Assembly: GCA_045646405.1 (NCBI GenBank)
Contig: JAZRKO010000001.1
Coordinates: 15,566-79,565 of the forward strand
Length of the DNA: 64,000 nucleotides
Direction: 5' to 3'
Origin: Christensenellaceae bacterium
Lineage (GTDB): Bacteria; Bacillota; Clostridia; Christensenellales; Borkfalkiaceae
Part shown: piece by piece, positions 2,635 through 51,758 of the stretch
Numbering within the stretch: the first letter of the stretch is position 1
How the letters are laid out: every line of letters starts with the position of its first letter
Made by a program: the position numbers and the translations under genes
Notes under the pieces: generated by a model
Told to the model about the DNA's origin: nothing
Seen by the model: only the letters and a program-made list of their open reading frames with translations
Database searches by the model: none

Positions 2635-2747
2635 AACAAAAACTCTCCTTTTGGTCGTGTTATAGCCTATGAAATTTTTTTTGATTATAGAACGAAATTT
2701 TGAATAAAAGTTAAAAAACTACCCACAATAATTTCGGGAGGTAAGGT

Positions 2748-2828: not shown

Positions 2829-2932
2829 TGAAGAAAAAGAACTTTAAGTCGCCATTTGACCCTAACGGAAGTTACACGGGAACGCCAAACGGCGAGAACG
2901 AAAAACCCGTTCAGGACGCAGACGATTTATAA
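2828..2932 (+). CDS. Micro-ORF, 34 aa (MKKKNFKSPFDPNGSYTGTPNGENEKPVQDADDL)
   Basis: Translationally coupled to the preceding micro-ORF and followed about 20 nt later by a clean terminator. Confidence 0.4.
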   Translation: MKKKNFKSPFDPNGSYTGTPNGENEKPVQDADDL

Positions 2933-2951
2933 AACTTTATAAGCAATCTAG

Positions 2952-2980
2952 AAAAGGCTACCAAAAAGGTAGCCTTTTCT
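2952..2980 (+). terminator. Rho-independent terminator
   Basis: aaaaggctacc-aaaaa-ggtagcctttt hairpin followed by a T-rich tail. Confidence 0.65.
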
Positions 2981-3155
2981 CGTTACTTTTTAATATCTAC
3001 TCACGGTAGAGTTAAAATTTGAAACTCTACCAAGCGCGTTTTTAACGGTATAGTTAAAAACTTACGCGGTAGGGAACGGTTTGTAAATTTAAGGTATATA
3101 ATAATACCGTGGCGTGGCTAAAACCATTTACTAATCAACCACCAAAGGAGATATT

Positions 3156-4067
3156 ATGAACTATAAAATTTATACCGACTCGTCGTCGGGCTTGCCCTCG
3201 TCTATCATTGACCGATTTAAGGTAAACGTTATTCCACTTTCGGTTATAATAGCGGGTGAAATTACAGAAGTTAAATGCCACGATGAAGTCTTTATGCAAG
3301 ACTTTTATCGTAGGCTTAGAGATAAAAACGATATGAGTACTTCTTGCATCAACCAAGAAACCTTTTACCAAACTTTCAAAAAAGAACTAGAAAGCGGGTT
3401 TGACGTTATTTATATAGGCTTATCGTCTGGGCTTTCACAAACTATTCAAAACGCTATTCAGTCGGCAACAAGGCTTGAAAAGGAATTTTCTAACCGCAAA
3501 GTATACGTTGTGGACTCGCTTAACGCCTGCCTTGGCGAAGGGCTACTTGCCTACACCGCTTGCCTTAAAAAAGAAGAGGGGCTTTCGGCAAAGGAAGTTT
3601 ACGATTACTTGCTATCCGTTAGGCTTTCTGCTAACAGTTTATTCACCGTTAAAACACTATCGTATCTAGCAAAGGGCGGTAGAATTTCTAAACTAAACTA
3701 CGCGCTTGGAACGGTAGTTGACGTAAAGCCTATTATGTACGTTAACGAAAGGGGCAAACTCGTTTCGTCTAGCAAGGTAATAGGCAGAAAGCGTTCGTTA
3801 ATAGCGATAGCCGATAACTTTGAAAAAACTATGATATCGCCTGAGGCTCAAACGATATTTATCGGGCACGGCGACTGCTTGGAAGACGCTAAAACCCTAG
3901 CAACCTTAATTTCTCAACGCGTTCCCGTAAAAGAGTTTATCTTTAACTATATCGACCCAATTATCGGCGTTCACAGTGGGCCTGACACCTTAGCCGTATT
4001 CGGCTACGGCTTATCTCGTGAACCGCAAGTTATAACGGCGGACAGTTCAAAACTCGCAAAAGCCTAA
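3156..4067 (+). CDS. DegV family fatty-acid-binding protein
   Basis: The N-terminus YKIYTDSSSGLPSSI...VIPLSV and overall length are typical of the DegV/FakB family. AAAGGAG RBS. Confidence 0.85.
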   Translation: MNYKIYTDSSSGLPSSIIDRFKVNVIPLSVIIAGEITEVKCHDEVFMQDFYRRLRDKNDMSTSCINQETFYQTFKKELESGFDVIYIGLSSGLSQTIQNAIQSATRLEKEFSNRKVYVVDSLNACLGEGLLAYTACLKKEEGLSAKEVYDYLLSVRLSANSLFTVKTLSYLAKGGRISKLNYALGTVVDVKPIMYVNERGKLVSSSKVIGRKRSLIAIADNFEKTMISPEAQTIFIGHGDCLEDAKTLATLISQRVPVKEFIFNYIDPIIGVHSGPDTLAVFGYGLSREPQVITADSSKLAKA

Positions 4068-4074
4068 CCATATA

Positions 4075-4107
4075 AAAAAATTCCGTGGAAAGCCCACGGA
4101 ATTTTTT
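4075..4107. terminator. Bidirectional terminator
   Basis: aaattccgtgg-aaag-ccacggaattt hairpin flanked by A7 and T6 runs, between convergent genes. Confidence 0.65.
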
Positions 4108-4111
4108 ATTG

Positions 4112-5182
4112 TTATGATATTGTAAACGATAATTTTTGGCTACCGCTAACCGTGTAGTAATAGGTTGCGTTTTGGGTGGCGGTAAACGTAGTTACGCCTT
4201 GGGCGTTAGTTGTAGAAACTAGCGTTGAAAGGTTACTATTTGAATATACCTTTATAGTCATACCCGACGTGTTTTCTCCCGCTGTAAACGTAACCGTTCC
4301 GTTTGACGTAGGCTTAATTCTAAAATATACTAGCGTGTTAACGTTGTCTATTTGACCGTTTAGCGATTGACCAACGTAAGTCCAAATAGCGTTTGACGCG
4401 TTAGAACCTAATATAACCGCAGTTTCTCCACTTTCACAGTCGGCAGAGTTTATAGGTGCGAAAGACGTTGGCTCAAACGAAGGGTTTTGAATAACGCCCG
4501 AACCGAACGTATCGTTTTGATAGTACGCAGATTCCGCCGAGCCTAAAACAGTTTTTTCAGCAACCCACTCGTAAACGGCTTTTCCGTTATCGTCAACACC
4601 CACTTCTTTATATACTAGTTTAGTTCTATATATAGGATATATTCTTTCGCCGATAGCGTAAGTGGGTTTTGCGCTTGCGCCGAGTAACCAACCGCTTTCG
4701 CCGAGATATACGCCCGTGGTGTATAAATATCTAACGTTTTTATCGTTTTTCGGCATATAAATCATAAAGGAAAGTTGACTTGCTGCAAGACCGAAAAGGT
4801 TGCTCATTTCGGTATCGTCGCGCGCGTCCATACTACCGAAGGTATATCGCGCTGGGTCCCAGAAACCGCTACTCGTAACACGGTCGTCAATTTCTTGGCT
4901 TAATGCAGAATCAGGGTTATTCATACCAATTTTAATCGTTTGACCACCGCTTATCATAGTACCGTTTAAGATGTTTTCAATAAGTTGGCGGTGGTTATAA
5001 CCTATTTCGTCTTCAGGGAGAATTTCTTCACCCTCCCACGGGAAGAACTGAATATCTACGTTTGCTAGTTTAGAAATTACAGGTCCTGTTGAATAACTCC
5101 ACGTAGCATAAACGCCAGTAATGCAAAAAAGGAATACAACTATAATTATAACAGTAACTTTTTTTGATATGCTACTTATCAT
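4112..5182 (-). CDS. Secreted protein with SipW-cognate-like signal peptide and PPC-like C-terminal beta-sandwich
   Basis: The N-terminus is KKVTVIIIVVFLFCITGVYATWSYS. The C-terminus (YFRIKPTSNGTVTFTAG...ATYYYTVSG) resembles pre-peptidase C-terminal domains. It is the last gene of the peptidase operon. Confidence 0.6.
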   Translation of the reverse strand: MISSISKKVTVIIIVVFLFCITGVYATWSYSTGPVISKLANVDIQFFPWEGEEILPEDEIGYNHRQLIENILNGTMISGGQTIKIGMNNPDSALSQEIDDRVTSSGFWDPARYTFGSMDARDDTEMSNLFGLAASQLSFMIYMPKNDKNVRYLYTTGVYLGESGWLLGASAKPTYAIGERIYPIYRTKLVYKEVGVDDNGKAVYEWVAEKTVLGSAESAYYQNDTFGSGVIQNPSFEPTSFAPINSADCESGETAVILGSNASNAIWTYVGQSLNGQIDNVNTLVYFRIKPTSNGTVTFTAGENTSGMTIKVYSNSNLSTLVSTTNAQGVTTFTATQNATYYYTVSGSQKLSFTIS

Positions 5183-5201
5183 ACCGTATTCCTCCTTTTG
5201 G

Positions 5202-6932
5202 TTAAATTTGTTTAATAAGTTCTACCGCCCATTTTGCCTGCCTATCCGACGTGATTTTTACGCGCATAGGATAACTTTCGTGTGATTTTTTATTAGATAC
5301 GTCAATAAACTTATACTTTGTATTTTTGAATTTTTTAGGCTGTAAGTTTATATAAACGTTTAACGTTTTACCTATAATTTTTAGTTTTGCAATTGCTTGC
5401 GCGCCTTTTTTATAGGTTACGTGTTTATTGCTATTTTTTACCCTTACGCCGTCAATACTTGATAAATAGTCAGTAATTAGCGTATACCTATTTATCATTT
5501 CGGGCGATAGTTCTTTAAGTTTTTGCTCAAAGGTTTTACCGCTACCTTTAATTTTGAAAAGCGTAGTCATAGCGTACATATAAAGACCAGATTTATTTGC
5601 AAGTTCGCTAACGAGTTCGTTAACCCATTTTACTTGCCTATCCGACGAAACTTTAACTCTCATTGGGTAATCTTTATACGCTTTTATTGAAGACGCGTCA
5701 GTATAAACGTACTTAGTATTTTCATACTCTTTTACGTCAAGCGCAAGGTGTACGTAGAGAGATTTACCCTTAAACGCTAGCCTTGCAATAGGCGTTCTAC
5801 CCTTTTTGTACGTTTCAAACGCCTTGCCTTCCCAAACGTGTAAGCCCTTTATCTTATATAAATGCTTAACTATTTCATTATACCTATTAAGAACTTCTTT
5901 CGACGCGCTATCGTGCTTTTCGCGGAAAGTTCTTCCTTTACCCGCCGTTTCATACCACTCTTTTTTAATAAACGTTTCTTCTTCTAAGCCTTGAACGAAC
6001 TTTTCACTAGAAACGTCGGTATACAAAATTTGGGGTGAAACGGTTAACGCCGTTTCACTGTCTATTATAGGCTGTTTTTCTTCTAAAACTTCTTTTATGC
6101 TATCGGCTTCTTCTTGGGTTAACGGCTGTGATGCGAGCGCCCCGTCAGCCGATAAATAGCCTATTTCGATAAGCCTTGCCATCTTAGCGTTTGCTATTTT
6201 CTTTTCAAGAATAGGCACGGCAAACAACACGAATATTACGAGTAATATACACAAATATCCTGCTGGCGACTGCATAAACACCACGAAACTACCTATAAAA
6301 GGTATCCTTTCGCCACGGTATATACCCTTCATTTGCTTATACGTTACAGGGAACTTATCTGCAACGTGAACCGCGTCACCTTGTAACTTAAAATACCTTT
6401 CGCTATGCTCGGCGTTAGGCTCTTCAATACCAACTATTCTATGAACCACAAGCATATCGTCAACTTCGTATACTACTATATCATAGAGTTTTAGGTCCAT
6501 CTCGTCAGGGAGTTTATGTACGGTTATAAGGTCAAAGGCTTGAATTTGGTCTTGTATATTATACTTGAATAAATACTCGTTTTTTTCGTACTTAGACGCC
6601 ATAGACGCACTTTTTACAACTTGTATAACGGGCACGTCTCCAACCATTTTAGTGCTTTCAATATTAACGCACGCTGACACGCCGAAAAATGCAATAATCA
6701 AAGTGCATACAACAAGCGAAAAAACCTTGTCAAAAATCGACAAGGCTTTCGCACGTTTAGTTGCGTTTTTAGTCTTTACGTATTCAGTTTTAATATTTTC
6801 GTCTTCAGCACCTAAATTTATAAGTTTTACGCTTGTTTTTACAACGTAAACGGTAAACCCAGTAAAAATACTTGTTAATAGTGCAAATACAATTAGGCAG
6901 ATTATAAAGACGTATATGTCAAAACCTGACAC
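5202..6932 (-). CDS. SipW-type (ER/archaeal-type S26) signal peptidase I fused to a duplicated C-terminal domain
   Basis: S26 boxes KSASM (Ser110), VVHRIV (His164) and QGDA. TM segments lie at about residues 5-30, 70-90 and 224-242. Residues 332-445 and 464-576 are a clear tandem duplication that includes YKKG..IAKL..GK.L.VY..L....Y.NTKY...D.S......YPMRVK..SDRQ.KW..EL. Confidence 0.7.
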   Translation of the reverse strand: MSGFDIYVFIICLIVFALLTSIFTGFTVYVVKTSVKLINLGAEDENIKTEYVKTKNATKRAKALSIFDKVFSLVVCTLIIAFFGVSACVNIESTKMVGDVPVIQVVKSASMASKYEKNEYLFKYNIQDQIQAFDLITVHKLPDEMDLKLYDIVVYEVDDMLVVHRIVGIEEPNAEHSERYFKLQGDAVHVADKFPVTYKQMKGIYRGERIPFIGSFVVFMQSPAGYLCILLVIFVLFAVPILEKKIANAKMARLIEIGYLSADGALASQPLTQEEADSIKEVLEEKQPIIDSETALTVSPQILYTDVSSEKFVQGLEEETFIKKEWYETAGKGRTFREKHDSASKEVLNRYNEIVKHLYKIKGLHVWEGKAFETYKKGRTPIARLAFKGKSLYVHLALDVKEYENTKYVYTDASSIKAYKDYPMRVKVSSDRQVKWVNELVSELANKSGLYMYAMTTLFKIKGSGKTFEQKLKELSPEMINRYTLITDYLSSIDGVRVKNSNKHVTYKKGAQAIAKLKIIGKTLNVYINLQPKKFKNTKYKFIDVSNKKSHESYPMRVKITSDRQAKWAVELIKQI

Positions 6933-6965
6933 GAGTTTCGCCTCCTAAATACTATGCACAAATGA

Positions 6966-7622
6966 TTAAGCGGTTGCTTCTGCTATTTTAATACCGATTG
7001 TACCAGAGTGTAATGCAAGTTTGAACGCGTCGTATTTAGCAACGGTATCTAATTTAAGATTACTATCAATAACGTTTTCGTCGATAGTAGGTTTATTAAG
7101 TGTGCTAGAATATTCAGTATTATAGAAAGTGATATTAGAAATAAGGTCACTTGCATTTATAGTCCAAATAAACGAACCAGGTGTAGTAGTTTTATCAGCA
7201 GAATTTTTTGAAAGAGTAATCGCATCAGTTTTAACGTAGAAAACGTTTACATTGTTGTATACCCAAGTAGTAGCACCAGTACCGCTGTTGGTAGTTAATA
7301 AACTCCATTCAAGGTCAATACCTTCATCTTTAACAGTTTGGTCTGCACCAGCGTTAGGAGTAAAAGTTACAGTTAATGAACCTGTAAGTTTCCATTCAGC
7401 AAGGTGGTTATTATTGCTATCGTCAATAGTGATTGCTAAATCGTTTTTAGTAATAACGATTTCACCCTTTGCATTGTCAACAACTTTATCGGTAATTTTA
7501 GTAATATCGTCAAAGTAAGAAGTTCTCGAAGTTACGTCACCTTGCGAGTAGTTCCAAGTAGCGTAAACGCCACCGATTGTTGCAATTAAAAAGATTGCAA
7601 TTAACGTGCTAAGTTTTTTCAT
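6966..7622 (-). CDS. Secreted protein with SipW-cognate-like signal peptide
   Basis: The N-terminus is MKKLSTLIAIFLIATIGGVYATWNYSQ. The mature part is Thr/Asn-rich and beta-rich. It is the first gene of the peptidase operon. Confidence 0.6.
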   Translation of the reverse strand: MKKLSTLIAIFLIATIGGVYATWNYSQGDVTSRTSYFDDITKITDKVVDNAKGEIVITKNDLAITIDDSNNNHLAEWKLTGSLTVTFTPNAGADQTVKDEGIDLEWSLLTTNSGTGATTWVYNNVNVFYVKTDAITLSKNSADKTTTPGSFIWTINASDLISNITFYNTEYSSTLNKPTIDENVIDSNLKLDTVAKYDAFKLALHSGTIGIKIAEATA

Positions 7623-7751
7623 AATTAAAATCTCCTTTTGATTTCAACTTTCGCGCTCGTGCGCGTAATTAAGTAATTTAATAATAGCACCACGAATTTT
7701 CTTTGTCAACAATTTTATTAATATTTTTTATGTAATAAAAGACGCTACCTG

Positions 7752-8543: not shown

Positions 8544-9941
8544 TTATAGGCGAATTTTCGATTCAATATAAGATTTTAACTCGCTAATAGGAAGTCTAAC
8601 TTGTTCCATAGTATCTCTATCGCGAACGGTAACGCACCCGTCAACTTCACTATCAAAGTCGTACGTTATGCAATACGGCGTACCGATTTCGTCTTCACGG
8701 CGATAGCGCTTGCCGATAGAGCCAGCCTCGTCGTAATCGACCATAAAGTATTTAGAAAGTTCGTTATAAACTTCCGTAGCCTTTTCGCCAAGTTTTTTAC
8801 TAAGCGGTAAAACCGCCGCCTTAAACGGTGCAAGGCAAGGATGTAATCTAAGTACCGTTCTTATATCGTTCTCGCCGACTTCTTCCTCGTCGTACGCGCC
8901 TGATAAAACTGCTAAAACGCATCTTTCAACGCCGAGTGACGGCTCAACCACGTAAGGAATATATCTTTCGTTAGTTTCAGCGTCAAAGTAAGATAAATCT
9001 TTCTTTGAAACGATTTGGTGTTGAGTAAGGTCGTAATCGGTTCTATCCGCTACGCCCCAAAGTTCGCCCCAACCAAAGGGGAATAAATACTCAAAGTCAG
9101 TAGTCGCTTTTGAGTAGAAACAAAGTTCTTCGGGCGAGTGGTCGCGTAGTCTTAAATGTTCTTCTTTCAAGCCGATATCGAGTAACCATTGACGGCAGAA
9201 CGAACGCCAGTAGTTAAACCATTCAAGGTCAGTACCGGGCTTGCAGAAGAATTCAAGTTCCATTTGTTCAAACTCTCTAACTCTAAAAATAAAGTTACCG
9301 GGGGTAATTTCGTTTCTAAACGACTTACCTATTTGAGCGATACCGAAAGGCACTTTCTTTCTTGCCGAACGCTGAACGTTTACGAAGTTAGTAAATATAC
9401 CTTGCGCCGTTTCAGGGCGGAGATATACGGTGTTTTTACTATCTTCCGTAACGCCTTGGAAGGTTTTGAACATTAAGTTGAATTGCCTAATGTCGGTAAA
9501 GTTGTGCTTACCGCAGGTTGGACAAGGAATATTATGTTCTTCAACGAAAGCCTTCATTTCTTCGTGAGAGAACGCGTCAATCCCCTTTTCTAAGGCGTAA
9601 TTATTTTCTTGCACCCAGTCTTCAATAAGTTTATCCGCTCTAAATCTTTCGTGGCATTCTTTACAGTCCATCAACGGGTCGGAAAAGCCTGCCAAGTGAC
9701 CAGACGCCACCCACGTTTGCGGGTTCATAAGTATAGCCGCGTCAAGCCCGACGTTTAGTTTATTTTCTTGAACGAATCTTTGCCACCAAGCCTTTTTAAC
9801 GTTGTTTTTAAGTTCAACGCCTAACGGGCCGTAGTCCCAAGTATTAGCAAGACCGCCGTAAATTTCGCTACCGGGGAAGATATAACCCCTAGTTTTGCAA
9901 AGATTTACGAGTTTTTCCATAGTAACTGCTCTTTTTTCCAC
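8544..9941 (-). CDS. glyQS: Glycine--tRNA ligase (single-chain class II)
   Basis: [24 protein letters not shown] and [25 protein letters not shown] are hallmark GlyQS motifs. Confidence 0.95.
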
Positions 9942-10107
9942 GATAACACCTCGTTTTTGTTTTTTAATATTTTATTAAAAATAACGGTTAATGTCAAGTA
10001 ATTTCAATATACGCGCACATAAAATAAATATATACCTAAATATTTTATTGATATTTATAAAAATTTGTGTTAAAATAAATTAAAATCATTATCTTACGGG
10101 GCTTTTT

Positions 10108-11742
10108 ATGGAAAATTTTACCGAAAGCAAGAATTTTATAGAAGATATCATCACCGAAGAACTTGAAAAAGGCGTAGTAAACTCAGTTCACACTCGTTTC
10201 CCGCCCGAACCTAACGGATACCTTCACATAGGTCACGCTAAAAGTTTATGCTTAAACTTTGGCACGGCTAAGAAGTACGACGGGGTTTGTAACCTTTTCT
10301 TTGACGATACTAACCCTTCAAAAGAAAAAACCGAGTACGTTGACGCTATTAAGGAAGATATCAAGTGGCTTGGCTTTACTTGGTTTGAGATGCATTACGC
10401 GTCAGATTATTTTGACGTTATTTACGAACTTGCCGTTAAACTTATTAAAGACGGGAAGGCTTACGTTTGCGACCTTTCGGCAGAAGAAATTAAAAACACT
10501 CGCGGTACTTTAACCGAACCGGGTGTTGAAAGCCCTTATCGCAACCGCTCTATCGAAGAAAACCTAAAACTCTTTGAAGAGATGAAAAACGGCGTTTATA
10601 AAGACGGGGAGAAAGTTCTTCGCGCTAAGATTGATATGGCATCGCCAAATATCAACATGCGTGACCCCGTTATTTATAGAGTACTTCGCGCAACTCATCA
10701 CAGAACGGGCGACAAGTGGTGTATTTACCCTATGTACGACTACGCGCACCCGATATGCGACAGTATGCAGGGTGTAACCCACTCGCTTTGCACCTTAGAG
10801 TTTGAAGACCACCGCCCACTTTATAACTGGACGATTGAAAATACAGGGGTTTCGCACAAACCGCGCCAAATAGAGTTTGCAAGGCTTAATATTACAAATA
10901 CCGTAATGAGCAAGCGCTATCTTAAAAAACTCGTGGAAGACGGGGCTGTTGAAGGTTGGGACGACCCGCGTATGCCTACCCTTACGGGGCTTAGAAATCG
11001 CGGTGTTCCGGCGGAAGCGCTTAAAAACTTCTGCGAAGAAATAGGCGTTGCAAAGGCAAATAGCGAAATTGAAGTTAGTTATTTCGAGCATTTTATTAGA
11101 GATTACCTTAACAAAAACGCCGAAAGGGCTATGGCGGTAGAAAACCCGCTTAAAGTTACTATTTCTAACTACGAAGGCGTTGAAGACACGGAGTTTGACG
11201 TTAATCCTAGCGACGAAAATTCGCCTAAGCGAAGCGTTGTGTTTGGAAAGACTTTATATATCGAGCAAGACGATTTTTCGCTCAACCCCCCACCCAAGTA
11301 TTTCAGGCTTAAAAAAGACGGATACGTTAGGCTTAAAAACGCATACATTATAAAATGTGACGACGTTAAGTTAGACGAAAACGGCAACCCCGTAGAACTC
11401 ATTTGTTCGTATATCCCCGAAAGCCGTTCGGGTAGTGACACTAGCGGAATTAAGTGCAAAGGTACTATCCACTGGGTTAACGCAAAACTCGCGGTTGACG
11501 TTGAACTTAGAAAGTACGAATACCTTCTTAAAGACGCGGAATACCAAGGTCAAGACTTTAACGAGCGTATGAACTACGATAGCGTTCATAAATTTATCGG
11601 TAAAGCCGAGCCTTATATCGCGCTTTCAAAAGACGGTACGCCTTTCCAACTTTTAAGAAAGGGCTACTACAAAAAAATGGTTAAGGGCGATAAAATCGTT
11701 CTTTCCGAAATCGTTTCAATGAAGGACAGTTTCAAAAAATAA
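10108..11742 (+). CDS. glnS: Glutamine--tRNA ligase
   Basis: HIGH motif (PEPNGYLHIGHAKS), VMSKR (the KMSKS equivalent), and a length and C-terminal beta-barrel region typical of GlnRS. Confidence 0.93.
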   Translation: MENFTESKNFIEDIITEELEKGVVNSVHTRFPPEPNGYLHIGHAKSLCLNFGTAKKYDGVCNLFFDDTNPSKEKTEYVDAIKEDIKWLGFTWFEMHYASDYFDVIYELAVKLIKDGKAYVCDLSAEEIKNTRGTLTEPGVESPYRNRSIEENLKLFEEMKNGVYKDGEKVLRAKIDMASPNINMRDPVIYRVLRATHHRTGDKWCIYPMYDYAHPICDSMQGVTHSLCTLEFEDHRPLYNWTIENTGVSHKPRQIEFARLNITNTVMSKRYLKKLVEDGAVEGWDDPRMPTLTGLRNRGVPAEALKNFCEEIGVAKANSEIEVSYFEHFIRDYLNKNAERAMAVENPLKVTISNYEGVEDTEFDVNPSDENSPKRSVVFGKTLYIEQDDFSLNPPPKYFRLKKDGYVRLKNAYIIKCDDVKLDENGNPVELICSYIPESRSGSDTSGIKCKGTIHWVNAKLAVDVELRKYEYLLKDAEYQGQDFNERMNYDSVHKFIGKAEPYIALSKDGTPFQLLRKGYYKKMVKGDKIVLSEIVSMKDSFKK

Positions 11743-26507: not shown

Positions 26508-29501
26508 ATGTACTTAAAATCTAAGTTTAATTTCAAAAAATTCTTAATTGCTTTACTTTCTACGCTTATGGCGGTTATGCTTGCCTTCTCGGTTGCTTGT
26601 TCAAACGACGGGGATACCGACGATGGCGACGATAACGACGATACTACTACGACCACTACCACCGTAGACTATCAAACGATAAAAAACGGTGACTTTGAAT
26701 TTGGTTGGACTGAAAAGACTACATTCCCGCTTTCTTCGGCTATCAGTTGGTCGAAAAGCATGGGGTCTGACGTTACTATCGCTCCTTCTTCAAAAGGTTC
26801 TTCGGGTATTATCGACACGGGTGATAAGTTCGCAAACTTAACCTCGAAAAACAAACCGTCTGAAAACCCAAGCACCCCTTACGACAAAGGGCTTATCGAA
26901 AGTAACGACTACGATAAAGACGATGAAGAAAAAAGAGTTAACCCCAACGTTGCAGGCAAAAAGGTTTTAATGATTAACAACCAAAACAACGGCATGGGCA
27001 CTGCTCAGGCGTACAAGGCGTCTAGTTCTATTTCCGTAGCGGTTGACGAGTTCTCGCTCTTATCTTTCTGGATAAAAACGGCTGACCTTAGTAGCGTTTA
27101 CACTCAAAACCCCGGCGCTTACGTTAAAATTTCTAGCAGTAGCGGTTCTACGTCATACGACGATTTCTTTATTAAGGGAATTAACACTAACGGCGAGTGG
27201 GCGCAATTTAATATCGGGCTTAAAGGTTCTTCAATTAGTTCAACCACCGTTAACTTAACTATCGGTCTTGGCGAAGGTAACGGCACCGACCAAAACGGTT
27301 TCGTTGAAGGCTTTACCTTTATCGATAACGTTTTTGTTAAAACTGTAAACGAAGCCGATTATGAAAGCGCGTCGTCAAAAGAAATTAAATCAAGCGATTT
27401 TGCTAACGACACGGTAACTTTGCCCACCACTTATAACGACAACGATTCAACTAGTTCAACGGTTACCGATAAATATAGCGTTGTTTCTTGCAAACTTAAC
27501 TTTGAAAATCAATTTACAACCACGGCGCTTAGCGGTAGCGTTCAATTTGGCTCTGCAAAACAAGGTTACGATTACACCGGCGCAGGCGCAAACAAAATAG
27601 GCTTGGGCAACCTTGCCACTACTAAGGCTATAATTCCTTCGGCGTTTGGCGAAAACGATAGTTTTGATAGCCTTGTTTATATGAACTTTACTAAGCACTC
27701 GTCGGCTAACTTCGTAACCACTCCCGTTTCTATCGGCAAAGGCGGATACAAATACGTTACCTTCTTTGCAAAGGTTAAAGCGTCTAATGCTAACTCTGAT
27801 AAACTCACGGTTGAAATTATTGACAAAAACGGCGATATCGCCGATCAAGACGTTTCGCTATTTGCATCGTTTGACACTTCTGCACTCGAAAGCGAAAGAT
27901 ATAACGACTGGATTAAATACCAAGCGTTCATCAACAACCCCACCGATAAAGACACTTCGTTTGAACTCAAATTCACCTTTGGTTCTAACAAAGATTTTAG
28001 TGATGCTTACGCCCTTCAAACGGGTTACGCAATAATAGCCGACCTTAAAGTTGCCGATACTGACGAGGCTACTTACAACAAAGCAACCGCATCTTCGCAA
28101 CTCGTTAAAAAGCAAGTTTACGGCGAATACCTTTCTTACTCGAAGGTAACCGAAAGCGAAATCGGTAACGACACTTACGGTATTACGGTTGACAAAACTC
28201 AAACCTTTACCCTTAAAGAAGTTCCCGCAACGAACGTTGTAGGCTACAACTTTAAGTCTAATAATGAAAGCACCGCTTACGGTATTATCAACAGCAAATA
28301 CTATAACGAAGCGACTTTCGTTTACGGTTCTAGCACCACGTTTAGCAACAATTTAGTTGGTTTAAGCGGGCTTAAAAACGTTGGCAACAATTTCGCGCAA
28401 GTAGTTATAATGGACAATAAGCAAGCGACTTATTCAAGGTTCGTAACCACTTCGCACACGATAGAAGCCGGCACGATTAGCAAAATCACCGTTAAAGTTA
28501 AAGCGTACGGTAGCGCCGTTTCAAACGTTTCGCTCGTATCTTCTTCGCTTGACGCGGAAGAACTTGAATATCAAGTAATTGACTTTAAGGTTGGCGAGTT
28601 TAGTCAAAAACTCTCGTCTAAAATAACCGCTAATTCGTATCAAAGAGACGGGTGGACCACCGCTCACTACTACGTTCAAGCAGGTAACGAAGATATCTCG
28701 CTTAGAGTAATGGTATCGAACGGCACTAAGGAAACGGCATCGCAAGGCGTAGTACTTTTCGAAGGCGTTACCTTTACTACTGTTGACAGCGCTAAAATCC
28801 AAGCCGATAAGAGCGCGCTCAAACTCAACTTTACTCAATACGCAAACAGCCTTACTGACGATACTTTGAAAGCCGAATACGCGTTCACTTCTAAAATGGA
28901 TACGAGAAAGCCTTCTACCGTTAAGACTGACGGGGAAGACGGTGAAGTCGTTGAAACCACTCAATACTACAACCCTGCGGAAGTATTCCTTGGCAACGAG
29001 TATGCTAAGTTCGTTTCATACGAAACCATCAACGCTGACGACGTTATAGATAACACTACTCCGTCTACCGACGAAGACGGTTCGACCGACACGTCTACCG
29101 ACGAAGGCTATTCAGTAAGTTTAGACGTAACTTTACAAATTTCTTCAATTATAATTGCAGTAGTTTTAATCGCCGTTATGATTACTATTTTAATTAGAAA
29201 CGGTCTTAAAAAGAGAGCAAAACGCAAGGCAAAAACTCAATCTTACTACGAAGAAAATTCGGGCTTTGATAGAAATACCCGTGAAAAAACTCTTAGAAAG
29301 ATAGCCGAAAAGAAGGCTAAAATCGCCCTTGCTAGTGACGACGAAGAATACGATTACGACGCTGCCGAGAAAGTTGACGAATCGCTAGAAGTTGAAACCG
29401 TAGAAGAAGTAGTTGAAGAAACTACCGAAGAAACCGTTGAAACCCAAGATGAACTAGCCGAAGAAACTACCGAAACTGAAAGCGACAACGGTAACGAATA
29501 A
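26508..29501 (+). CDS. Large cell-surface protein with lipobox N-terminus, CBM-like beta-sandwich modules, C-terminal TM anchor and acidic tail
   Basis: Lipobox AFSVAC, an Asp/Thr linker (TTTTTTT), an NGDFEFG start typical of CBM4/9-like modules, a C-terminal TM (ISSIIIAVVLIAVMITILI), a KKRAKRKAK stop-transfer and a Glu-rich tail. Confidence 0.7.
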   Translation: MYLKSKFNFKKFLIALLSTLMAVMLAFSVACSNDGDTDDGDDNDDTTTTTTTVDYQTIKNGDFEFGWTEKTTFPLSSAISWSKSMGSDVTIAPSSKGSSGIIDTGDKFANLTSKNKPSENPSTPYDKGLIESNDYDKDDEEKRVNPNVAGKKVLMINNQNNGMGTAQAYKASSSISVAVDEFSLLSFWIKTADLSSVYTQNPGAYVKISSSSGSTSYDDFFIKGINTNGEWAQFNIGLKGSSISSTTVNLTIGLGEGNGTDQNGFVEGFTFIDNVFVKTVNEADYESASSKEIKSSDFANDTVTLPTTYNDNDSTSSTVTDKYSVVSCKLNFENQFTTTALSGSVQFGSAKQGYDYTGAGANKIGLGNLATTKAIIPSAFGENDSFDSLVYMNFTKHSSANFVTTPVSIGKGGYKYVTFFAKVKASNANSDKLTVEIIDKNGDIADQDVSLFASFDTSALESERYNDWIKYQAFINNPTDKDTSFELKFTFGSNKDFSDAYALQTGYAIIADLKVADTDEATYNKATASSQLVKKQVYGEYLSYSKVTESEIGNDTYGITVDKTQTFTLKEVPATNVVGYNFKSNNESTAYGIINSKYYNEATFVYGSSTTFSNNLVGLSGLKNVGNNFAQVVIMDNKQATYSRFVTTSHTIEAGTISKITVKVKAYGSAVSNVSLVSSSLDAEELEYQVIDFKVGEFSQKLSSKITANSYQRDGWTTAHYYVQAGNEDISLRVMVSNGTKETASQGVVLFEGVTFTTVDSAKIQADKSALKLNFTQYANSLTDDTLKAEYAFTSKMDTRKPSTVKTDGEDGEVVETTQYYNPAEVFLGNEYAKFVSYETINADDVIDNTTPSTDEDGSTDTSTDEGYSVSLDVTLQISSIIIAVVLIAVMITILIRNGLKKRAKRKAKTQSYYEENSGFDRNTREKTLRKIAEKKAKIALASDDEEYDYDAAEKVDESLEVETVEEVVEETTEETVETQDELAEETTETESDNGNE

Positions 29502-34186: not shown

Positions 34187-35368
34187 TCAATACTTTCTCC
34201 AAACCATTTTATCAACTATGCCCGTATACGACTGAATAAGTTTAACTACTTTCGTTGAAACGTTTAGGTCAGTATAATCGGGTACGGGAATTCCTTGCAA
34301 GCCGTTTACGTTGAGTTTAACGGCAGTTTCTACCGCTTGAAGCAAACTCTTTTCGTCAATGCCCGCAAGAACGAAACACGCTTTGTCAAGCGCCTCTGGG
34401 CGCTCGGTTGACGTTCTTATGCAAACCGCAGGGAAAGGTTTACCTATACTTGTAAAGAAGGAACTTTCCTCAGGTAGCGTGCCACTATCGGAAACCACCG
34501 CGTAAGCGTTCATTTGAAGGTTATTGTAGTCGTTAAACCCAAGCGGTTGCTGACAAATAACGCGTTTATCAAGCACGAAACCGCTTTTTTCTAAACGCTT
34601 TTTGCTTCTTGGGTGGCAACTATAAAGTATAGGCATATCGTACTTTTCAGCCATTTTGTTAATCGCCGTGAAAAGCGAGATAAAGTTCTTTTCAGTATCG
34701 ATATTTTCTTCTCTATGCGCGGAAAGTAATATATAGTTCTTCTTTTTAAGGTTAAGCCTATCTAAAACGTCACTACTCTCTATTTGTTTAAGATTTCCGC
34801 TTAAAACTTCCGCCATAGGCGAACCCGTTACGTACGTTCTTTCTTTGGGAAGTCCGCAGTCGGCAAGATATCTTCTAGCGTGTTCGCTATACGCTAAGTT
34901 TACATCGGAAATAATATCTACTATACGGCGGTTGGTTTCTTCTGGCAAGCACTCGTCTTTACAGCGGTTGCCTGCTTCCATATGGAAAATAGGAATATGA
35001 AGCCTTTTAGCGGGAATTGCCGATAAGCAACTATTAGTATCGCCAAGTATCAAAAGCGCGTCGGGCTTGATTTCAGCCATAAGTTTATACGAACAGTTTA
35101 TAATATTTCCTACCGTTGCGCCTAAGTCGTCACCTACCGCGTCCATATACGTTTCGGGTGGGAAAAGATTTAAGTCTTTGAAAAATACGCCGTTTAAGTT
35201 ATAGTCGTAGTTTTGACCGGTGTGCGCGAGTATGCAGTCAAAGTACTCACGGCATCTTCTAATCGTTGCCGAAAGCCTTATAATTTCGGGGCGAGTGCCA
35301 ACTATAATTAAAAGTTTAAGTCTGCCATCGTTACTAAATTTCACGCCGGAATAATCAAGTTTTATCAT
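34187..35368 (-). CDS. fnlC: Non-hydrolysing UDP-sugar 2-epimerase, FnlC/CapG/WbjD-like
   Basis: LIIVGTRPEIIRLS and HTGQNYD motifs. It lies in an operon with FnlA- and FnlB-like genes. Confidence 0.8.
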   Translation of the reverse strand: MIKLDYSGVKFSNDGRLKLLIIVGTRPEIIRLSATIRRCREYFDCILAHTGQNYDYNLNGVFFKDLNLFPPETYMDAVGDDLGATVGNIINCSYKLMAEIKPDALLILGDTNSCLSAIPAKRLHIPIFHMEAGNRCKDECLPEETNRRIVDIISDVNLAYSEHARRYLADCGLPKERTYVTGSPMAEVLSGNLKQIESSDVLDRLNLKKKNYILLSAHREENIDTEKNFISLFTAINKMAEKYDMPILYSCHPRSKKRLEKSGFVLDKRVICQQPLGFNDYNNLQMNAYAVVSDSGTLPEESSFFTSIGKPFPAVCIRTSTERPEALDKACFVLAGIDEKSLLQAVETAVKLNVNGLQGIPVPDYTDLNVSTKVVKLIQSYTGIVDKMVWRKY

Positions 35369-35385
35369 TTTAATTCTCCTTAGTT

Positions 35386-36573
35386 TTATATCTCTAAATC
35401 TTTGATAAGTTGCTTAACTGCGCTGTTTTTCTCTTGCGAAACTGAATTATAAGCCTGCATTTCCTTTTTAATTTTGCCAGCGTTACCCGTAAACAATCTT
35501 TCAAACCAACGATGCAAGTGACAAAACGGAAGTAACCATTTGTGTTTTTTAAGTATCGGGTAGCGCGTCTTCATAGAATTATACGGCAAAAATATTCTCT
35601 TAAACAAATATTTTCCGCGACTATCTCCTTGCGCCTTGTTCATTGCAATCTTATTATTCAAATTTCCGTATACACCGCCGGTTAAAAGATATTCTTGCAT
35701 ATTTAGGGTTAATTCAGTGTGGTTTTTATCTCCAAACCAAACTTCACACAAATCGCAAGCAGCGTTATAAAACTTCAAAATTTTGCCTTTTTCTAAAAGA
35801 GTAGTTAATTTTTCTTGGTCAATTTCAAAACGATTTCTTAAAATAAATAAATCAATGAACGGACGAATTCCACATCCACCACCAACAAAGTGGTAAGACA
35901 TATGCGCCAACATATGAAAAATAAAAAATTCGTTTTCTACCCTATATTCAAATCCGCCTTGTTCAATGGGATAAGCGTAATCCCACACGTCTTTAAGAAC
36001 GTAGTCAATCTTCTTAATATTTTCTAAAATGTTAAAATGTAGTTCTAAATGCACGTTAGACGAAAACATTAAAGAAACGTCGTGGAAATTTTTATCCCCT
36101 TCTTTTCTACACCCCAAGTTGTCAACTAACGCCTTTATTGCCCTATCAAGGTCTTGCTCTTTAACAAGCACGTCAATATCACAACTCGTACGCAACCAAG
36201 GTTCGGGATAATAATCTCTAATTACCGCGCCTTTTAACGGAATAAAGGGTATCTTTTCCGCATTTAGCGTTTCGCATATCTTTCTGTATTCATAAATCAA
36301 CTGTTCATAACGGTAAAAAGCCAAAAAGTATTGCTTCTTAAAAGCCTCTTCAATTTCTAATTGTAAAGATAAATTCAACTTGTTTATTGAATTAAATACC
36401 AAGTGTGCTAAATCGTGTTTTTTTGACAACACAAATAATTCTCGCTGCATTTTGGGCGAAATTTCAGTTTTTTCTAGTCCACAGTCTTCCGTTATTTCGT
36501 TTTTAATCAATGAAAACAGCAAGTTTTCGGTTTTGAGTCCTTCCATATTAGTCTTAAAATTATACCTCTTCAA
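35386..36573 (-). CDS. Uncharacterised nucleotidyltransferase-family protein (NTP_transf_5-like)
   Basis: RTSCDIDVLV and HLELHFN motifs with a helical N-terminal region. It is embedded between fnlB and fnlC. Confidence 0.55.
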   Translation of the reverse strand: MKRYNFKTNMEGLKTENLLFSLIKNEITEDCGLEKTEISPKMQRELFVLSKKHDLAHLVFNSINKLNLSLQLEIEEAFKKQYFLAFYRYEQLIYEYRKICETLNAEKIPFIPLKGAVIRDYYPEPWLRTSCDIDVLVKEQDLDRAIKALVDNLGCRKEGDKNFHDVSLMFSSNVHLELHFNILENIKKIDYVLKDVWDYAYPIEQGGFEYRVENEFFIFHMLAHMSYHFVGGGCGIRPFIDLFILRNRFEIDQEKLTTLLEKGKILKFYNAACDLCEVWFGDKNHTELTLNMQEYLLTGGVYGNLNNKIAMNKAQGDSRGKYLFKRIFLPYNSMKTRYPILKKHKWLLPFCHLHRWFERLFTGNAGKIKKEMQAYNSVSQEKNSAVKQLIKDLEI

Positions 36574-37759
36574 AAAAAGTATCTGGTTTTTTAGGGGAAA
36601 AATTCTCGTTCGCCCACATAACCGTAACTAAATCTTGCGTGCTTGATAAGTTTATTATGTTGTGGGTGTAGCCGGGTAGCATATGCACCGCTTGAATTTT
36701 ATCACCGCTAACTTCGTATTTGATAACTTCGTTAGTGCCGATTTTTCGCTCTTCGATAAGACCGTGACCAGAAACGACTATAAAGAATTCCCACTTACTG
36801 TGGTGCCAGTGTTGACCTTTTACCGCGTTAGGCTTTGAAATATTGATTGAAACTTGCCCACCACCTATCGTCTTTATAAGTTCGGTAAAACTACCGCGTT
36901 CGTCTGCGCTAGTTTTTAGGTCGAATATCGCCTTTTCACTAGGAAGGTACGATAAATAAGTTGAATATAATTTTTTAGCAAAACTACCCTCTTTAATTTC
37001 GGGTATTATTAAAGTTTTGGGTTGCTTTGCAAACTCGTATAAAAGATTTACTATCTCGCCAAGCGTAACCTTGTGCGTAGTTGGAACGAACGAGTATCTC
37101 CCGCTTTCGCTTTTAACGGGGGTGAGCCCGTCGTAATCGCAACGGTTACCTTGACCTTCTAAAAGGTCAAGCATTTCTTTAACTAAGTCGTCGATATACA
37201 AAAGTTCAAGCTTTATAGACGGGTCGGTTACCGTGATAGAAAGGTCGTTCGCTACGTTATTGCAAAAAGTCGCTACCGCGCTGTTATAGTTTGGTCTGCA
37301 CCACTTGCCGAAAAGGTTGGGAAAGCGATAGACGTAAACCTTAGCGCCCGTTTCTTTTTCGTAGTCAAAAAACAGTTCTTCGCCCGCTTTTTTGCTCTTG
37401 CCGTACTCGCCGTCAGCGTATCTACCTATAAGCGTTGCCTGAATTGACGACGATAGCATCACAGGGCATTTATTACCGTGTTTTTTAAGCGCTGATAATA
37501 AATCACTTGCAAAACCGAAGTTACCTTTCATAAACTCATCTTGATTTTGCGGGCGGTTAACACCTGCTAGGTTAAAGCAAAAATCACAATTTTTGGCGTA
37601 GTTATCGAGTTCGGCGGGCGTGCCGTCGATATCGTATTCGTAAATCTCGTCAATTTTAAGGTTTGGGCGAGTTCTATCCTTTCCGTCTTTTATATTTTTA
37701 AGGCTTTCTACTAGGTTTTTACCAACGAAACCCTTTGCGCCCGTAACTAAAATTTTCAT
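36560..37759 (-). CDS. fnlB: FnlB/CapF/WbjC-like bifunctional reductase/epimerase (SDR plus C-terminal cupin)
   Basis: N-terminal Rossmann ILVTGAKGFVGKNL and a C-terminal cupin (GQHWHHSKWEFFIVVSGHG), as in CapF. Confidence 0.8.
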   Translation of the reverse strand: MKILVTGAKGFVGKNLVESLKNIKDGKDRTRPNLKIDEIYEYDIDGTPAELDNYAKNCDFCFNLAGVNRPQNQDEFMKGNFGFASDLLSALKKHGNKCPVMLSSSIQATLIGRYADGEYGKSKKAGEELFFDYEKETGAKVYVYRFPNLFGKWCRPNYNSAVATFCNNVANDLSITVTDPSIKLELLYIDDLVKEMLDLLEGQGNRCDYDGLTPVKSESGRYSFVPTTHKVTLGEIVNLLYEFAKQPKTLIIPEIKEGSFAKKLYSTYLSYLPSEKAIFDLKTSADERGSFTELIKTIGGGQVSINISKPNAVKGQHWHHSKWEFFIVVSGHGLIEERKIGTNEVIKYEVSGDKIQAVHMLPGYTHNIINLSSTQDLVTVMWANENFSPKKPDTFFEEV

Positions 37760-37784
37760 ATTACTTACCTTTTGCCTACCTATT

Positions 37785-38831
37785 TTACTTGCCTATCTTT
37801 GCAAGTTCTTCTTTAATGTAGTCAAGAGTTAAAAGTTTAGCTTTAACTTCTTCAACCGTTAAAAGTTCAGTGTTATTGCTATTAAATTCGGCAAGCGTGT
37901 TTCTCTCAGCGTTGCCGTCGGTAAAATACTTGTCGTAGTTAAGCCCGCGGTTATCTGACGGAACGCGGTAGAAATCACCAAGGTCGATGGCGTTCGCGCA
38001 CTCTTCGTTGGTTAGAAGCGTTTCAAACATCTTCTCGCCGTGGCGAATACCTATAATTTTAATATCGTCTTTATTTCCGCCAAAGAGTTCGCATACTGCA
38101 ATAGCCTGCGTCATAATAGTACACGCTGGCGCTTTTTGAACGAGAATATCACCGCTTACACCGTTTTCAAAGGCAAATAGAACAAGGTCAACCGCCTCGT
38201 CAAGCGACATAATAAATCTGGTCATATTCGGGTCGGTAATCGTAATGGGTTGTCCATTTTTGATTTGGTCTATCCAAAGTGGGATTACAGAGCCCCTTGA
38301 ACACATAACGTTGCCGTATCTAGTACAGCAAATTTTAGTTTTGTCTGGCGAAACGGTACGTGATTTTGCCACGGCTACCCTTTCTTCAAGCGCCTTTGAA
38401 ATACCCATAGCGTTAACGGGATAAGCCGCTTTATCCGTCGATAAACAAATTATCGATTTAACGCCTTCGGCTATCGCTACGTTTAGAACGTTTTCGGTTC
38501 CTAAAACGTTGGTTTTTACCGCTTCTATCGGGAAAAATTCACACGAAGGCACTTGTTTAAGCGCCGCTGCGTGGAATACGTAGTCAACGCCGTGCATGGC
38601 GTTTTTTATAGACTGAACGTCTCTAACGTCGCCGATATGAAATTTGATTTTTTCAGCAACTTCGGGCATTTTCGCTTGATACTCGTGGCGCATATCGTCT
38701 TGTTTTTTCTCATCACGCGAGAAAATGCGAATTTCACCGATATCTGTTTTCAAAAAGCGGTTAAGTACGGCGTTGCCAAAACTACCCGTACCACCAGTTA
38801 TAAGTAACGTTTTATCCTTAAAAAGTGACAT
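37785..38831 (-). CDS. fnlA: UDP-GlcNAc 4,6-dehydratase/5-epimerase, FnlA/CapE/WbjB-like
   Basis: LITGGTGSFGNAV and the unusual MxxxK catalytic dyad context (NAMGISKAL) characteristic of CapE/FnlA. Confidence 0.88.
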   Translation of the reverse strand: MSLFKDKTLLITGGTGSFGNAVLNRFLKTDIGEIRIFSRDEKKQDDMRHEYQAKMPEVAEKIKFHIGDVRDVQSIKNAMHGVDYVFHAAALKQVPSCEFFPIEAVKTNVLGTENVLNVAIAEGVKSIICLSTDKAAYPVNAMGISKALEERVAVAKSRTVSPDKTKICCTRYGNVMCSRGSVIPLWIDQIKNGQPITITDPNMTRFIMSLDEAVDLVLFAFENGVSGDILVQKAPACTIMTQAIAVCELFGGNKDDIKIIGIRHGEKMFETLLTNEECANAIDLGDFYRVPSDNRGLNYDKYFTDGNAERNTLAEFNSNNTELLTVEEVKAKLLTLDYIKEELAKIGK

Positions 38832-38832
38832 A

Positions 38833-43670: not shown

Positions 43671-43678
43671 AATAAATA

Positions 43679-46020: not shown

Positions 46021-46027
46021 AACCATC

Positions 46028-47068: not shown

Positions 47069-47099
47069 TTTATACTCACCCTACATTCATAAAAATTCC

Positions 47100-48089: not shown

Positions 48090-48120
48090 TAATCGTAACT
48101 TGCTTTTTCGTTACTTTTCC

Positions 48121-49236: not shown

Positions 49237-49244
49237 AAATATCC

Positions 49245-51724: not shown

Positions 51725-51758
51725 ACAAACCCCTAACAAATACGTATAATATACGTAT

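Follow-up and report, generated by a model that had tools for sequence, protein, structure and literature searches.

Why should a bacterial signal peptidase gene lie between the genes of two otherwise dissimilar secreted proteins that begin in the same way? The question is raised by a 64,000-nucleotide stretch of DNA from Christensenellaceae bacterium (contig JAZRKO010000001.1, positions 15,566 to 79,565; in its full length, 'the window'), in which three consecutive minus-strand genes, here termed A, B and C, encode a secreted protein, a divergent relative of the endoplasmic reticulum (ER)- and archaeal-type signal peptidases, and a second secreted protein. We propose that these genes probably constitute a self-contained secretion-maturation module, in which B is dedicated to A and C and for which a surface or matrix assembly is the most likely role.

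The preliminary description of this locus had given the coordinates, lengths and spacing of the three open reading frames (ORFs) exactly as we find them, with 33 nt between A and B and 19 nt between B and C. Each gene is preceded, 8 nt from its start, by a Shine-Dalgarno sequence (AGGAG for A; AGGAGG for B and for C). Upstream of A lies a promoter-like site that is the region's best match to a sigma-70-like consensus (11 of 12 positions), and downstream of C an intrinsic terminator that is common to C and a convergent DegV gene. With its small gaps, three Shine-Dalgarno sequences, one promoter-like site and one terminator, A-B-C is one operon. Hairpin terminators had been described at both ends; the downstream one stands, whereas the upstream flank holds the promoter-like site and a short hairpin that is ruled out as a terminator by its lack of a T-run and is absent from the output of the terminator scan.

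What joins A to C is the N-terminus. A starts MKKLSTLIAIFLIATIGGVYATWNYSQG and C starts MISSISKKVTVIIIVVFLFCITGVYATWSYSTG, and the two N-termini end, as had been reported, in a common motif (...LIATIGGVYATWNYSQ in A and ...LFCITGVYATWSYST in C); in a six-frame translation of the window, G-V-Y-A-T-W occurs at just these two sites. When the A-family alignment (A1) is compared with the C-family alignment (A2) profile to profile, the first 39 columns alone align (96% probability, E 1e-9), so that A and C are unrelated outside the N-terminus, which agrees with the earlier reading. Within A1, residues G17, V19, Y20, A21, W23 and Y25 are invariant and the remainder of the protein is about 35% identical; the motif is looser in A2 (G-V-x-[AG]-[TA]-W). 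The predicted cleavage sites directly follow Ala21 of A and Ala26 of C and have Val at -3 and Ala at -1.

A stretch resembling that of SipW-cognate signal peptides had also been pointed out, and the pattern G-x-x-A-x-[FW] with an aromatic P2' is indeed present in both proteins as GVYA↓TW (arrow, cleavage site). In an hhalign comparison of TasA with the A family, the signal peptides alone align, residue for residue and in register (MKKLS..IGGVYA↓TWNY on MKKKLS..GGGTWA↓AFND; 9% probability), with an aromatic residue at P2 and at P2' and, in the window's A as in TasA, Asn at P3'; the TasA query is identical to Protein Data Bank (PDB) entry 8AUR over the mature chain from Ala28 (AFND). Formal membership in the SipW-cognate class is a different matter. 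The models TIGR04088 (34 positions, cut-off 19 bits), TIGR04089 and TIGR04090 gave no match, even at E<=10, to the A or C N-termini or to a consensus-like N-terminus of the A family. Since TIGR04088 finds TasA, the positive control (38 bits), but not A or C, their signal peptides are not of the TIGR04088 class. Judged by sequence, A and C carry a putative new signal-peptide class with the motif G-V-[YF]-A↓T-W-x-[YF].

B carries the S26 boxes that had been described, KSASM (Ser110), VVHRIV (His164) and QGDA (Gly185-Asp186), and among 21 diverse homologues (about 50% identity) S110, M111, H164, R165, I166, G185, D186 and D192 are invariant; because the catalytic Ser, His and Asp are constant across the family, B is probably an active protease. 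Its sole matches in NCBIfam are SipW (NF046067; E 5e-13, 49.0 bits against a cut-off of 190) and the archaeal signal peptidase I model TIGR02228 (E 8e-9, 35.6 bits against 51.85, covering residues 87-238 including Ser110), each under its curated cut-off. Pfam, including Peptidase_S24/S26, assigns B to no family, and Peptidase_S26 is barely seen among the homologues, 3 of 21 reaching E 0.2. A profile of the 21 homologues searched against the PDB places human SEC11A, SEC11A and SEC11C as the top three, weakly (E 0.06-0.3), with B's vHRi and GD....D on the SEC11 His and Asp boxes (GDNNAVDD in SEC11A), and a SipW sequence aligns with B at E 4e-10 over the His box (THRIV), the Asp box and the C-terminal transmembrane helix. 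Given these weak SipW, TIGR02228 and SEC11 matches and the invariant residues, B is best placed in a divergent subfamily of the ER/archaeal-type (Ser-His-Asp) enzyme. B has more than 586 clusters of homologues, all unnamed; like those of A and C, they derive from gut metagenomes and MAGs (metagenome-assembled genomes).

In a hydropathy plot, three hydrophobic segments of B span residues of about 1-32, 61-93 and 212-249, and the loops beside them are basic; the pattern agrees with a catalytic domain lying between N- and C-terminal helices, save that there is one helix more. The loop between the first two contains a motif conserved in the 21 homologues (...G.ED..I..EY.K), and the QSPAG..C motif of the third helix is invariant in the B-family alignment (A3). 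By the positive-inside rule, the catalytic domain is predicted to face outward and the basic repeats of the C-terminal tail to be cytoplasmic. SEC11A and SEC11C (7P2P, 7P2Q) are the nearest relatives of B with solved structures, and the third catalytic Asp aligns too; however, the similarity is very weak, and SEC11 is a general peptidase that acts as part of a four-subunit complex, whereas B appears to be a stand-alone, substrate-dedicated enzyme.

The triad recurs well beyond the window. We scanned 185,579 species-representative genomes with the motif itself as the search pattern and retrieved 137 relatives of A. The 80 best of the 137 come from human and animal guts, and all are MAGs, their labels being Christensenellaceae, Acutalibacteraceae, Oscillospiraceae, Faecousia, Candidatus Scatosoma, Vescimonas or unclassified Clostridia; the clustering of neighbourhoods covers 83 loci. 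A B homologue directly follows A in 79 of the 80 loci. When ORFs of the 83 loci are clustered, A is found in 83, B in 82 and a third gene in 78, the next real family occurring in 11; because no fourth family is conserved across these varied neighbourhoods, the module is self-contained. The downstream protein has a hydrophobic N-terminus followed by the motif in 80 of 82 loci, the other two stopping at a contig edge. These downstream proteins were retrieved without selection for the motif, and yet it is clear in them: Gly at P4 (95%), Val at P3 (84%), Phe/Tyr at P2 (81%), Ala at P1 (96%), Thr at P1' (73%), Trp at P2' (93%; Phe in 6%) and Tyr/Phe at P4' (94%). Loci fetched through B alone tell the same story, all six having A upstream (GGVYATW in four, GGVYANW and GGVYAAW in one each) and a motif protein downstream. 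A dedicated Ser-His peptidase with two cognate substrates of new families, as first suggested, is therefore strongly supported, the triad being the sole conserved set in the 83 loci.

The third gene is the variable part: about 50 loci carry the core of C, detected with a hidden Markov model (HMM) of A2, about a dozen also its C-terminal domain, and a few hold two downstream motif proteins. No A relative was found in a scan of IMG/VR viral contigs, which gives no sign of phage carriage, and the searchable literature yielded no description of the module or the motif and nothing pertinent on SipW in these taxa.

From these observations we infer a short path from precursor to extracellular product. 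Sec would export A and C by way of the unusually conserved signal peptide, with its Lys/Arg n-region, an h-region ending ...T-I-G-G and a V-Y-A c-region. B, as a membrane-bound serine protease (Ser110-His164, Asp186/Asp192) with its active site outward and its repeats in the cytoplasm, would cut between Ala and Thr in both (VYA↓TW.Y). The housekeeping Ser-Lys signal peptidase would handle the precursors poorly because of their aromatic residues at P2 (Tyr/Phe), P2' (Trp) and P4' (Tyr/Phe), so that release of A and C would depend on B. A precedent exists in that LepB, a P-type peptidase, is hindered by an aromatic P2' and by the P2 Trp of TasA, which SipW processes (PMC10269814), and the same partitioning between peptidases would be the simplest explanation for the conservation of these three positions. 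Once freed, the acidic A and C may work extracellularly in a surface or matrix assembly, with A providing the main subunit and C a partner that is minor, nucleating or adhesive, and the new N-terminus TW.Y[SA].G that both carry could give them a common strand for docking or donation, on the pattern of TasA/TapA.

This path presupposes cleavage, and the first alternative is that A and C are not cleaved at all, their N-termini being permanent membrane anchors of a pseudopilin-like or signal-anchored kind and B a platform or a processor of something else. In its favour, the h-region is unusually conserved for a disposable signal (Thr at P7 in 98%, Ile/Val at P6, then GG), B has membrane and cytoplasmic parts beyond the needs of a simple peptidase, and AlphaFold2 (AF2) renders the N-termini of A and C as helices. 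The invariant catalytic residues of B speak against it, as does the fit of Val at -3 and Ala at -1 to signal-peptidase specificity, with a motif that straddles the site as it does in TasA. Type IV prepilins were rejected, there being no G↓FTLIE motif and no pilus gene, whether ATPase or platform, in the 83 neighbourhoods; a lipoprotein was rejected for want of a lipobox in the window protein. Overall, we consider permanent anchoring improbable. At their other ends, A and C have no hydrophobic segment by hydropathy, and no LPXTG-type sorting motif was seen on reading the two C-termini.

The cargo itself resists assignment. Mature A is predicted to have 197 aa, an isoelectric point (pI) of 4.5 and no Cys, and scans of Pfam and NCBIfam found no family for it; its homologues form 247 clusters, all unnamed or 'hypothetical'. 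The AF2 monomer of A, built on an alignment of 26 sequences, is a beta-sandwich with short helices (predicted local distance difference test [pLDDT] 78.7, predicted TM score 0.71), in which pLDDT is below 50 over residues 17-27, the conserved residues 22-27 among them, and DSSP assigns no structure to 15-32. Foldseek against the PDB gave a best E of 0.025 with TM scores of at most 0.29 and no TasA among the 50 matches listed, and BFVD gave none at E<0.01; a cohesin match of the A profile in the PDB (E 0.06) is at chance level.

C (mature pI 4.5; 45 clusters of close homologues, all unnamed or 'hypothetical') likewise has no family in Pfam or NCBIfam. Its AF2 model (pLDDT 79.7) shows a C-terminal domain of about 105 residues and, ahead of it, an alpha/beta core that includes a long beta-hairpin at 180-221. 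The PPC-like end that had been attributed to this 356-aa protein holds up: the domain superposes on collagen-binding domains of collagenases (ColG/ColH) and pre-peptidase C-terminal (PPC) domains, namely on 3jqw (TM score 0.65, root-mean-square deviation [rmsd] 2.8 Å, 108 columns), on 5sv5 (TM score 0.66) and on 1nqd (TM score 0.60-0.62), with rmsd of 2.8-3.7 Å and a probability of 1.00. Pfam PPC (PF04151) has no match to C, which has only sub-threshold matches to two other Ig-like families, CarboxypepD_reg (E 0.04) and bMG3 (E 0.04). In some C homologues (P0127 and P0149-P0154; 448-466 aa) the N-terminus reads MKILKILIGIVLSFSTAFIGIGYAQLSS... instead of GVYATW and is followed by an extra domain of about 110 residues; since these proteins swap the signal peptide, the C-family core can evidently be exported behind another signal.

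The fold of C suggests a second alternative, in which C is a toxin- or lectin-like payload akin to Clostridium perfringens enterotoxin (CPE) or botulinum HA70, A an accessory protein or chaperone, and no fibre is made. Foldseek relates the C model to HA70 (HA3) and CPE at E 5e-5 to 1e-3 with probabilities of 0.95-0.99, and the layout is the same, an elongated beta-rich N-terminal part followed by a receptor-binding domain like a collagen-binding domain. The superposition, however, spans 250-300 columns at an rmsd of about 21 Å and a whole-length TM score of about 0.2, and the signal may come from the common C-terminal sandwich alone. Most members of the C family are without that domain (12 'full-length' matches among the loci), and it is A, not C, that is the most conserved and widespread cargo, with 247 against 45 close homologues. 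We give the payload no better a chance than permanent anchoring.

Slightly less credible still is a third alternative, that the module is a true but highly diverged member of the TasA/TapA group (including camelysin and BsaA), with jellyroll A and C assembling by donor-strand exchange after SipW cleavage. Much of the Bacillus subtilis tapA-sipW-tasA operon does return here: the order of substrate, ER-type Ser-His signal peptidase and substrate; two substrates that are dissimilar outside the signal peptide and the first mature residues, the latter shared in A and C as in TasA and TapA; and a site with a small P1 and aromatic P2 and P2' (GGTWA↓AF in TasA, GGVYA↓TW in A and C), where signal peptide and cleavage site align with those of TasA. 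Like SipW, B is predicted to end in a transmembrane helix followed by a cytoplasmic tail. It differs from SipW in a further predicted transmembrane hairpin at the N-terminus, in additional sequence inserted between its Ser box and its His box, and in two basic repeats of about 115 aa, and it scores 49 bits where the SipW model demands 190. The A and C signal peptides escape TIGR04088, the hosts are uncultured Christensenellaceae/Oscillospirales-type gut Clostridia, and neither in sequence nor in fold do A and C resemble TasA or TapA. Peptidase_M73 (Pfam), NF046066 (TasA) and TIGR04090 (BsaA) did not match A or C at E<=1, and TasA itself, run as a control, matches the TasA-class models that both proteins miss; the hhalign likeness stops at the signal peptide, and Foldseek with A found neither TasA (5OF1, 8AUR) nor a fibre subunit at E<0.02. 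The lack of TasA/camelysin motifs in the substrates had been noted at the outset, and Pfam, NCBIfam and the Foldseek search of A concur. With B under the SipW cut-off and A and C outside the SipW-cognate signal-peptide and TasA models, the module is an analogue of tapA-sipW-tasA, not a member. The weakest alternative, that the N-terminal likeness of A and C is chance or a gene-calling artefact and the genes are unrelated neighbours, can be dismissed, as the motif is confined to two N-termini in the window and the triad occurs in more than 85 loci with differing neighbours.

Two other known systems are close in design. The sipW-bsaA-bsaB-bsaC operon of C. perfringens also belongs to Clostridia and also combines a SipW-type peptidase with secreted matrix proteins that need it (PMC11580942); there, however, the peptidase gene comes first, and isopeptide bonds lock BsaA and BsaB, which are remotely homologous to TasA, whereas A and C miss TIGR04090 and no conserved Lys/Asn/Glu triad is evident in A1. 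The loci for AbpA bundling pili, AbpX, threads and cannulae likewise place an S26B/TIGR02228-type peptidase gene beside small beta-sandwich subunits and tip or minor components (bioRxiv 10.64898/2026.01.04.697558; PMC9245690). The subunits of such archaeal and bacterial donor-strand loci are, in contrast, TasA-like in fold, the AbpX-linked peptidase is described with ten transmembrane helices, and no homology of A or C to AbpA/AbpX-type loci was detected.

On the anatomy of the module, the most attractive view of the cargo is a surface fibre or matrix whose main subunit would be A, with C in a minor or adhesive part; taken on its own, this is a tentative suggestion that we would not call probable. 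The argument for it starts from TasA, whose fibre is built by a donor strand comprising the first 11 mature residues, F29 (P2') among them, which the TapA N-terminus mimics to nucleate assembly (PMC9674648). The first 11 predicted mature residues of A (TWNYSQGDVTS) and C (TWSYSTGPVIS) are identical at 7 positions, and their Trp and Tyr alternate, as expected on one face of a strand. Over 78 loci and positions P3' plus P5'-P12', A and its partner share 1.17 identities within a genome against 0.88 between genomes, a modest excess reached in 3 of 2000 permutations; the h-regions of A and its partner show the same within-genome excess. The donor-strand parallel with TasA/TapA is suggestive but weak.

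Several points weigh against this overall picture. B stands below every curated S26 threshold. The 100% conservation of the motif in A is partly circular, because the genome scan was searched with the motif, and the word-based protein search probably favoured it too. The cleavage position rests on the (-3,-1) rule and the analogy with TasA. One genome (L027) has A adjoining its partner with no B between them, and a search of the window with a SipS-like query found no P-type peptidase there. The likeness of the A and C N-termini could be explained by peptidase recognition alone; the strictly conserved segment after the cleavage site, with no more than about 5-7 residues, would make a short donor strand; the A model has no fold similarity to TasA or any solved donor-strand subunit; and polymerisation of A is conjecture. 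In L027, a Candidatus Scatosoma MAG, the two genes lie at 2924..5145, the motif-bearing partner has 472 aa, and just downstream of it is a protein of 1022 aa in which collagen-like GxK/GxT repeats are combined with a metalloprotease motif, HEMGH.

The tail of B poses a question of its own. Beyond the third transmembrane helix and an acidic linker, it consists of two copies of one basic domain (44% identity, E 1e-31), for which neither Pfam nor the PDB returned a match; a phage portal in the PDB sequence/profile search (E 0.02) was judged a chance match. Among the 82 B homologues of the genome loci, only about 13 have the domain; members of the close family have 2-4 copies. A profile of it also finds 3160 other protein clusters, whose lengths range from 154 to 6312 aa; the 150 best matches listed contain 2-7 copies. 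In 16 such proteins sampled, DUF2357 occurs in eight and a C-terminal ribosomal L15-type domain in three, and one has a sub-threshold DUF1801 match that overlaps its repeat region. DUF2357 is tied to restriction-type nucleases. A reasonable guess for the repeats of B is cytoplasmic binding of nucleic acid or ribosomes.

Some loci lie in the canonical cluster of sporulation sigma-factor genes. The triad stands between spoIIGA-sigE and sigG in five of the 80 genome loci and three of the six loci fetched through B (L033, L035, L047, L071, L085, L089, L091 and L092), and directly downstream of sigG in L090, a fourth locus fetched through B; in these clusters SigE is above its model's cut-off and SigG is the best match. 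The window locus has no such context. These positions hint at sporulation-linked expression in part of the lineage, and TasA was originally reported as spore-associated (PMC9674648). In L089 the A homologue reads ...KEKL-stop-KKLSLLVALILCVTIGGVYATW..., with a stop codon (2739..2741) at the expected ATG, and the gene caller used an internal Met; this could reflect a mutated start codon, a non-standard start or a mistake in the assembly. An AbrB/SpoVT-like ORF (MKATGIVRRIDELGRVVIPKEIRR...) is found in the flanks of 11 of 83 loci, on either strand, its median start about 1.6 kb past the start of B; in L020 (3580..4233) it lies about 2.5 kb upstream of B. The co-occurrence is noteworthy because, in Bacillus, tapA-sipW-tasA is under the control of AbrB, although a functional tie of this ORF to the triad is at most putative.

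Putting all of this together, one can imagine a new Gram-positive surface fibre or matrix in which A, with a new fold, polymerises through the TW.Y strand that B exposes, C is a variable nucleator or adhesin, the repeats of B tether ribosomes or mRNA in part of the lineage and thereby bring cargo synthesis to the peptidase, and the system is switched on at the onset of sporulation in some hosts; as a whole, this combination seems to us unlikely, though less so than any of the alternatives considered above.

Table 1. Features of the A-B-C operon and its flanks, in window coordinates.
Feature	Coordinates	Strand	Description or basis
Gene A	6966..7622	-	ORF, 218 aa; secreted protein
Gene B	5202..6932	-	ORF, 576 aa, GTG start; divergent ER/archaeal-type (S26B-like) signal peptidase
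Gene C	4112..5182	-	ORF, 356 aa; secreted two-domain protein
Promoter-like site TTGACA-17-TGcTATTAT, extended -10 TG	7709..7681	-	Upstream of A; consensus match only
GC hairpin CGCGC-acga-GCGCG	7652..7665	-	5-bp stem, no T-run; in 5' untranslated region of A
Bidirectional intrinsic terminator AAAAAATTCCGTGG-gcttt-CCACGGAATTTTTT	4075..4107	.	14-bp stem and T-run; downstream of C
Predicted signal peptide of A, residues 1-21 (MKK / LSTLIAIFLIATIGG / VYA)	7560..7622	-	Hydrophobic segment and TasA alignment
Motif in A, G18-VYATWNYS-26 (P4 to P5')	7545..7571	-	Sequence and family conservation
Predicted signal peptide of C, residues 1-26	5105..5182	-	Hydropathy, sequence, profile-profile comparison
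Motif in C, G23-VYATWSYS-31	5090..5116	-	Sequence
B residues 1-91, extra N-terminal transmembrane helix, basic loop (predicted cytoplasmic), second transmembrane helix	6660..6932	-	Hydropathy and charge; conserved in 21 homologues
B residues 92-222, catalytic domain	6267..6659	-	Invariant residues in alignment A3
B Ser110	6603..6605	-	Catalytic residue
B His164	6441..6443	-	Catalytic residue
B Asp186	6375..6377	-	Catalytic residue
B Asp192	6357..6359	-	Catalytic residue
B residues 223-247, third transmembrane helix (SPAGYLCILLV...)	6192..6266	-	Hydropathy
B residues 331-450, repeat 1	5583..5942	-	Internal repeat, about 115 aa, pI 9.8; predicted cytoplasmic
B residues 463-576, repeat 2	5205..5546	-	Same domain as repeat 1; pI 10.1
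C residues ~47-250, core domain (motifs ILNG, GSMD, YLYTT, IYPIYRT)	4433..5044	-	Alignment A2
C residues ~251-356, PPC/collagen-binding-domain-like beta-sandwich	4115..4432	-	Foldseek

In the window, the neighbours of the operon are housekeeping genes, with DegV on one side and a biotin-ligase-family gene and the glycyl- and glutaminyl-tRNA synthetases (GlyRS, GlnRS) on the other. GlyRS (8544..9941, minus strand) and GlnRS (10108..11742, plus strand) are divergent, with 166 nt between them (9942..10107), in which no T-box leader was detected; Rfam (at the gathering score) and tRNA scans of the whole window gave no match. Farther away, about 16 genes run in one direction at 34187..51739 (minus strand), with a GC content down to 31% at 40-46 kb, and include a Polysacc_synt flippase (38833..40362) and a GT4/GT1 glycosyltransferase (42483..43670); this is probably a surface-polysaccharide locus. 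The 997-aa ORF at 26508..29501 (plus strand) matched no Pfam family at E<=1e-5.

Dedicated ER-type signal peptidases and special signal peptides make biofilm fibres in Bacillus, C. perfringens and many archaea. The module described here would add to this known logic an unrecognised signal-peptide class, a peptidase subfamily and two cargo families, and, in the tandem basic domain of B, it draws attention to a large family of more than 3000 clusters that is without description. For annotators, G-V-[YF]-A↓T-W-x-[YF] would be a new sorting-signal motif, and the module may offer a natural test of how substrates are partitioned between signal peptidases by aromatic P2 and P2' residues. At least about 130 species-level genomes carry it, from Christensenellaceae, Acutalibacteraceae, Faecousia, Scatosoma and related gut Clostridia, taxa with almost no experimental biology in which all of its members are annotated as 'hypothetical'. 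A, as a probable surface or matrix protein, may therefore provide a handle on adhesion, aggregation or spore-surface biology in these gut bacteria.

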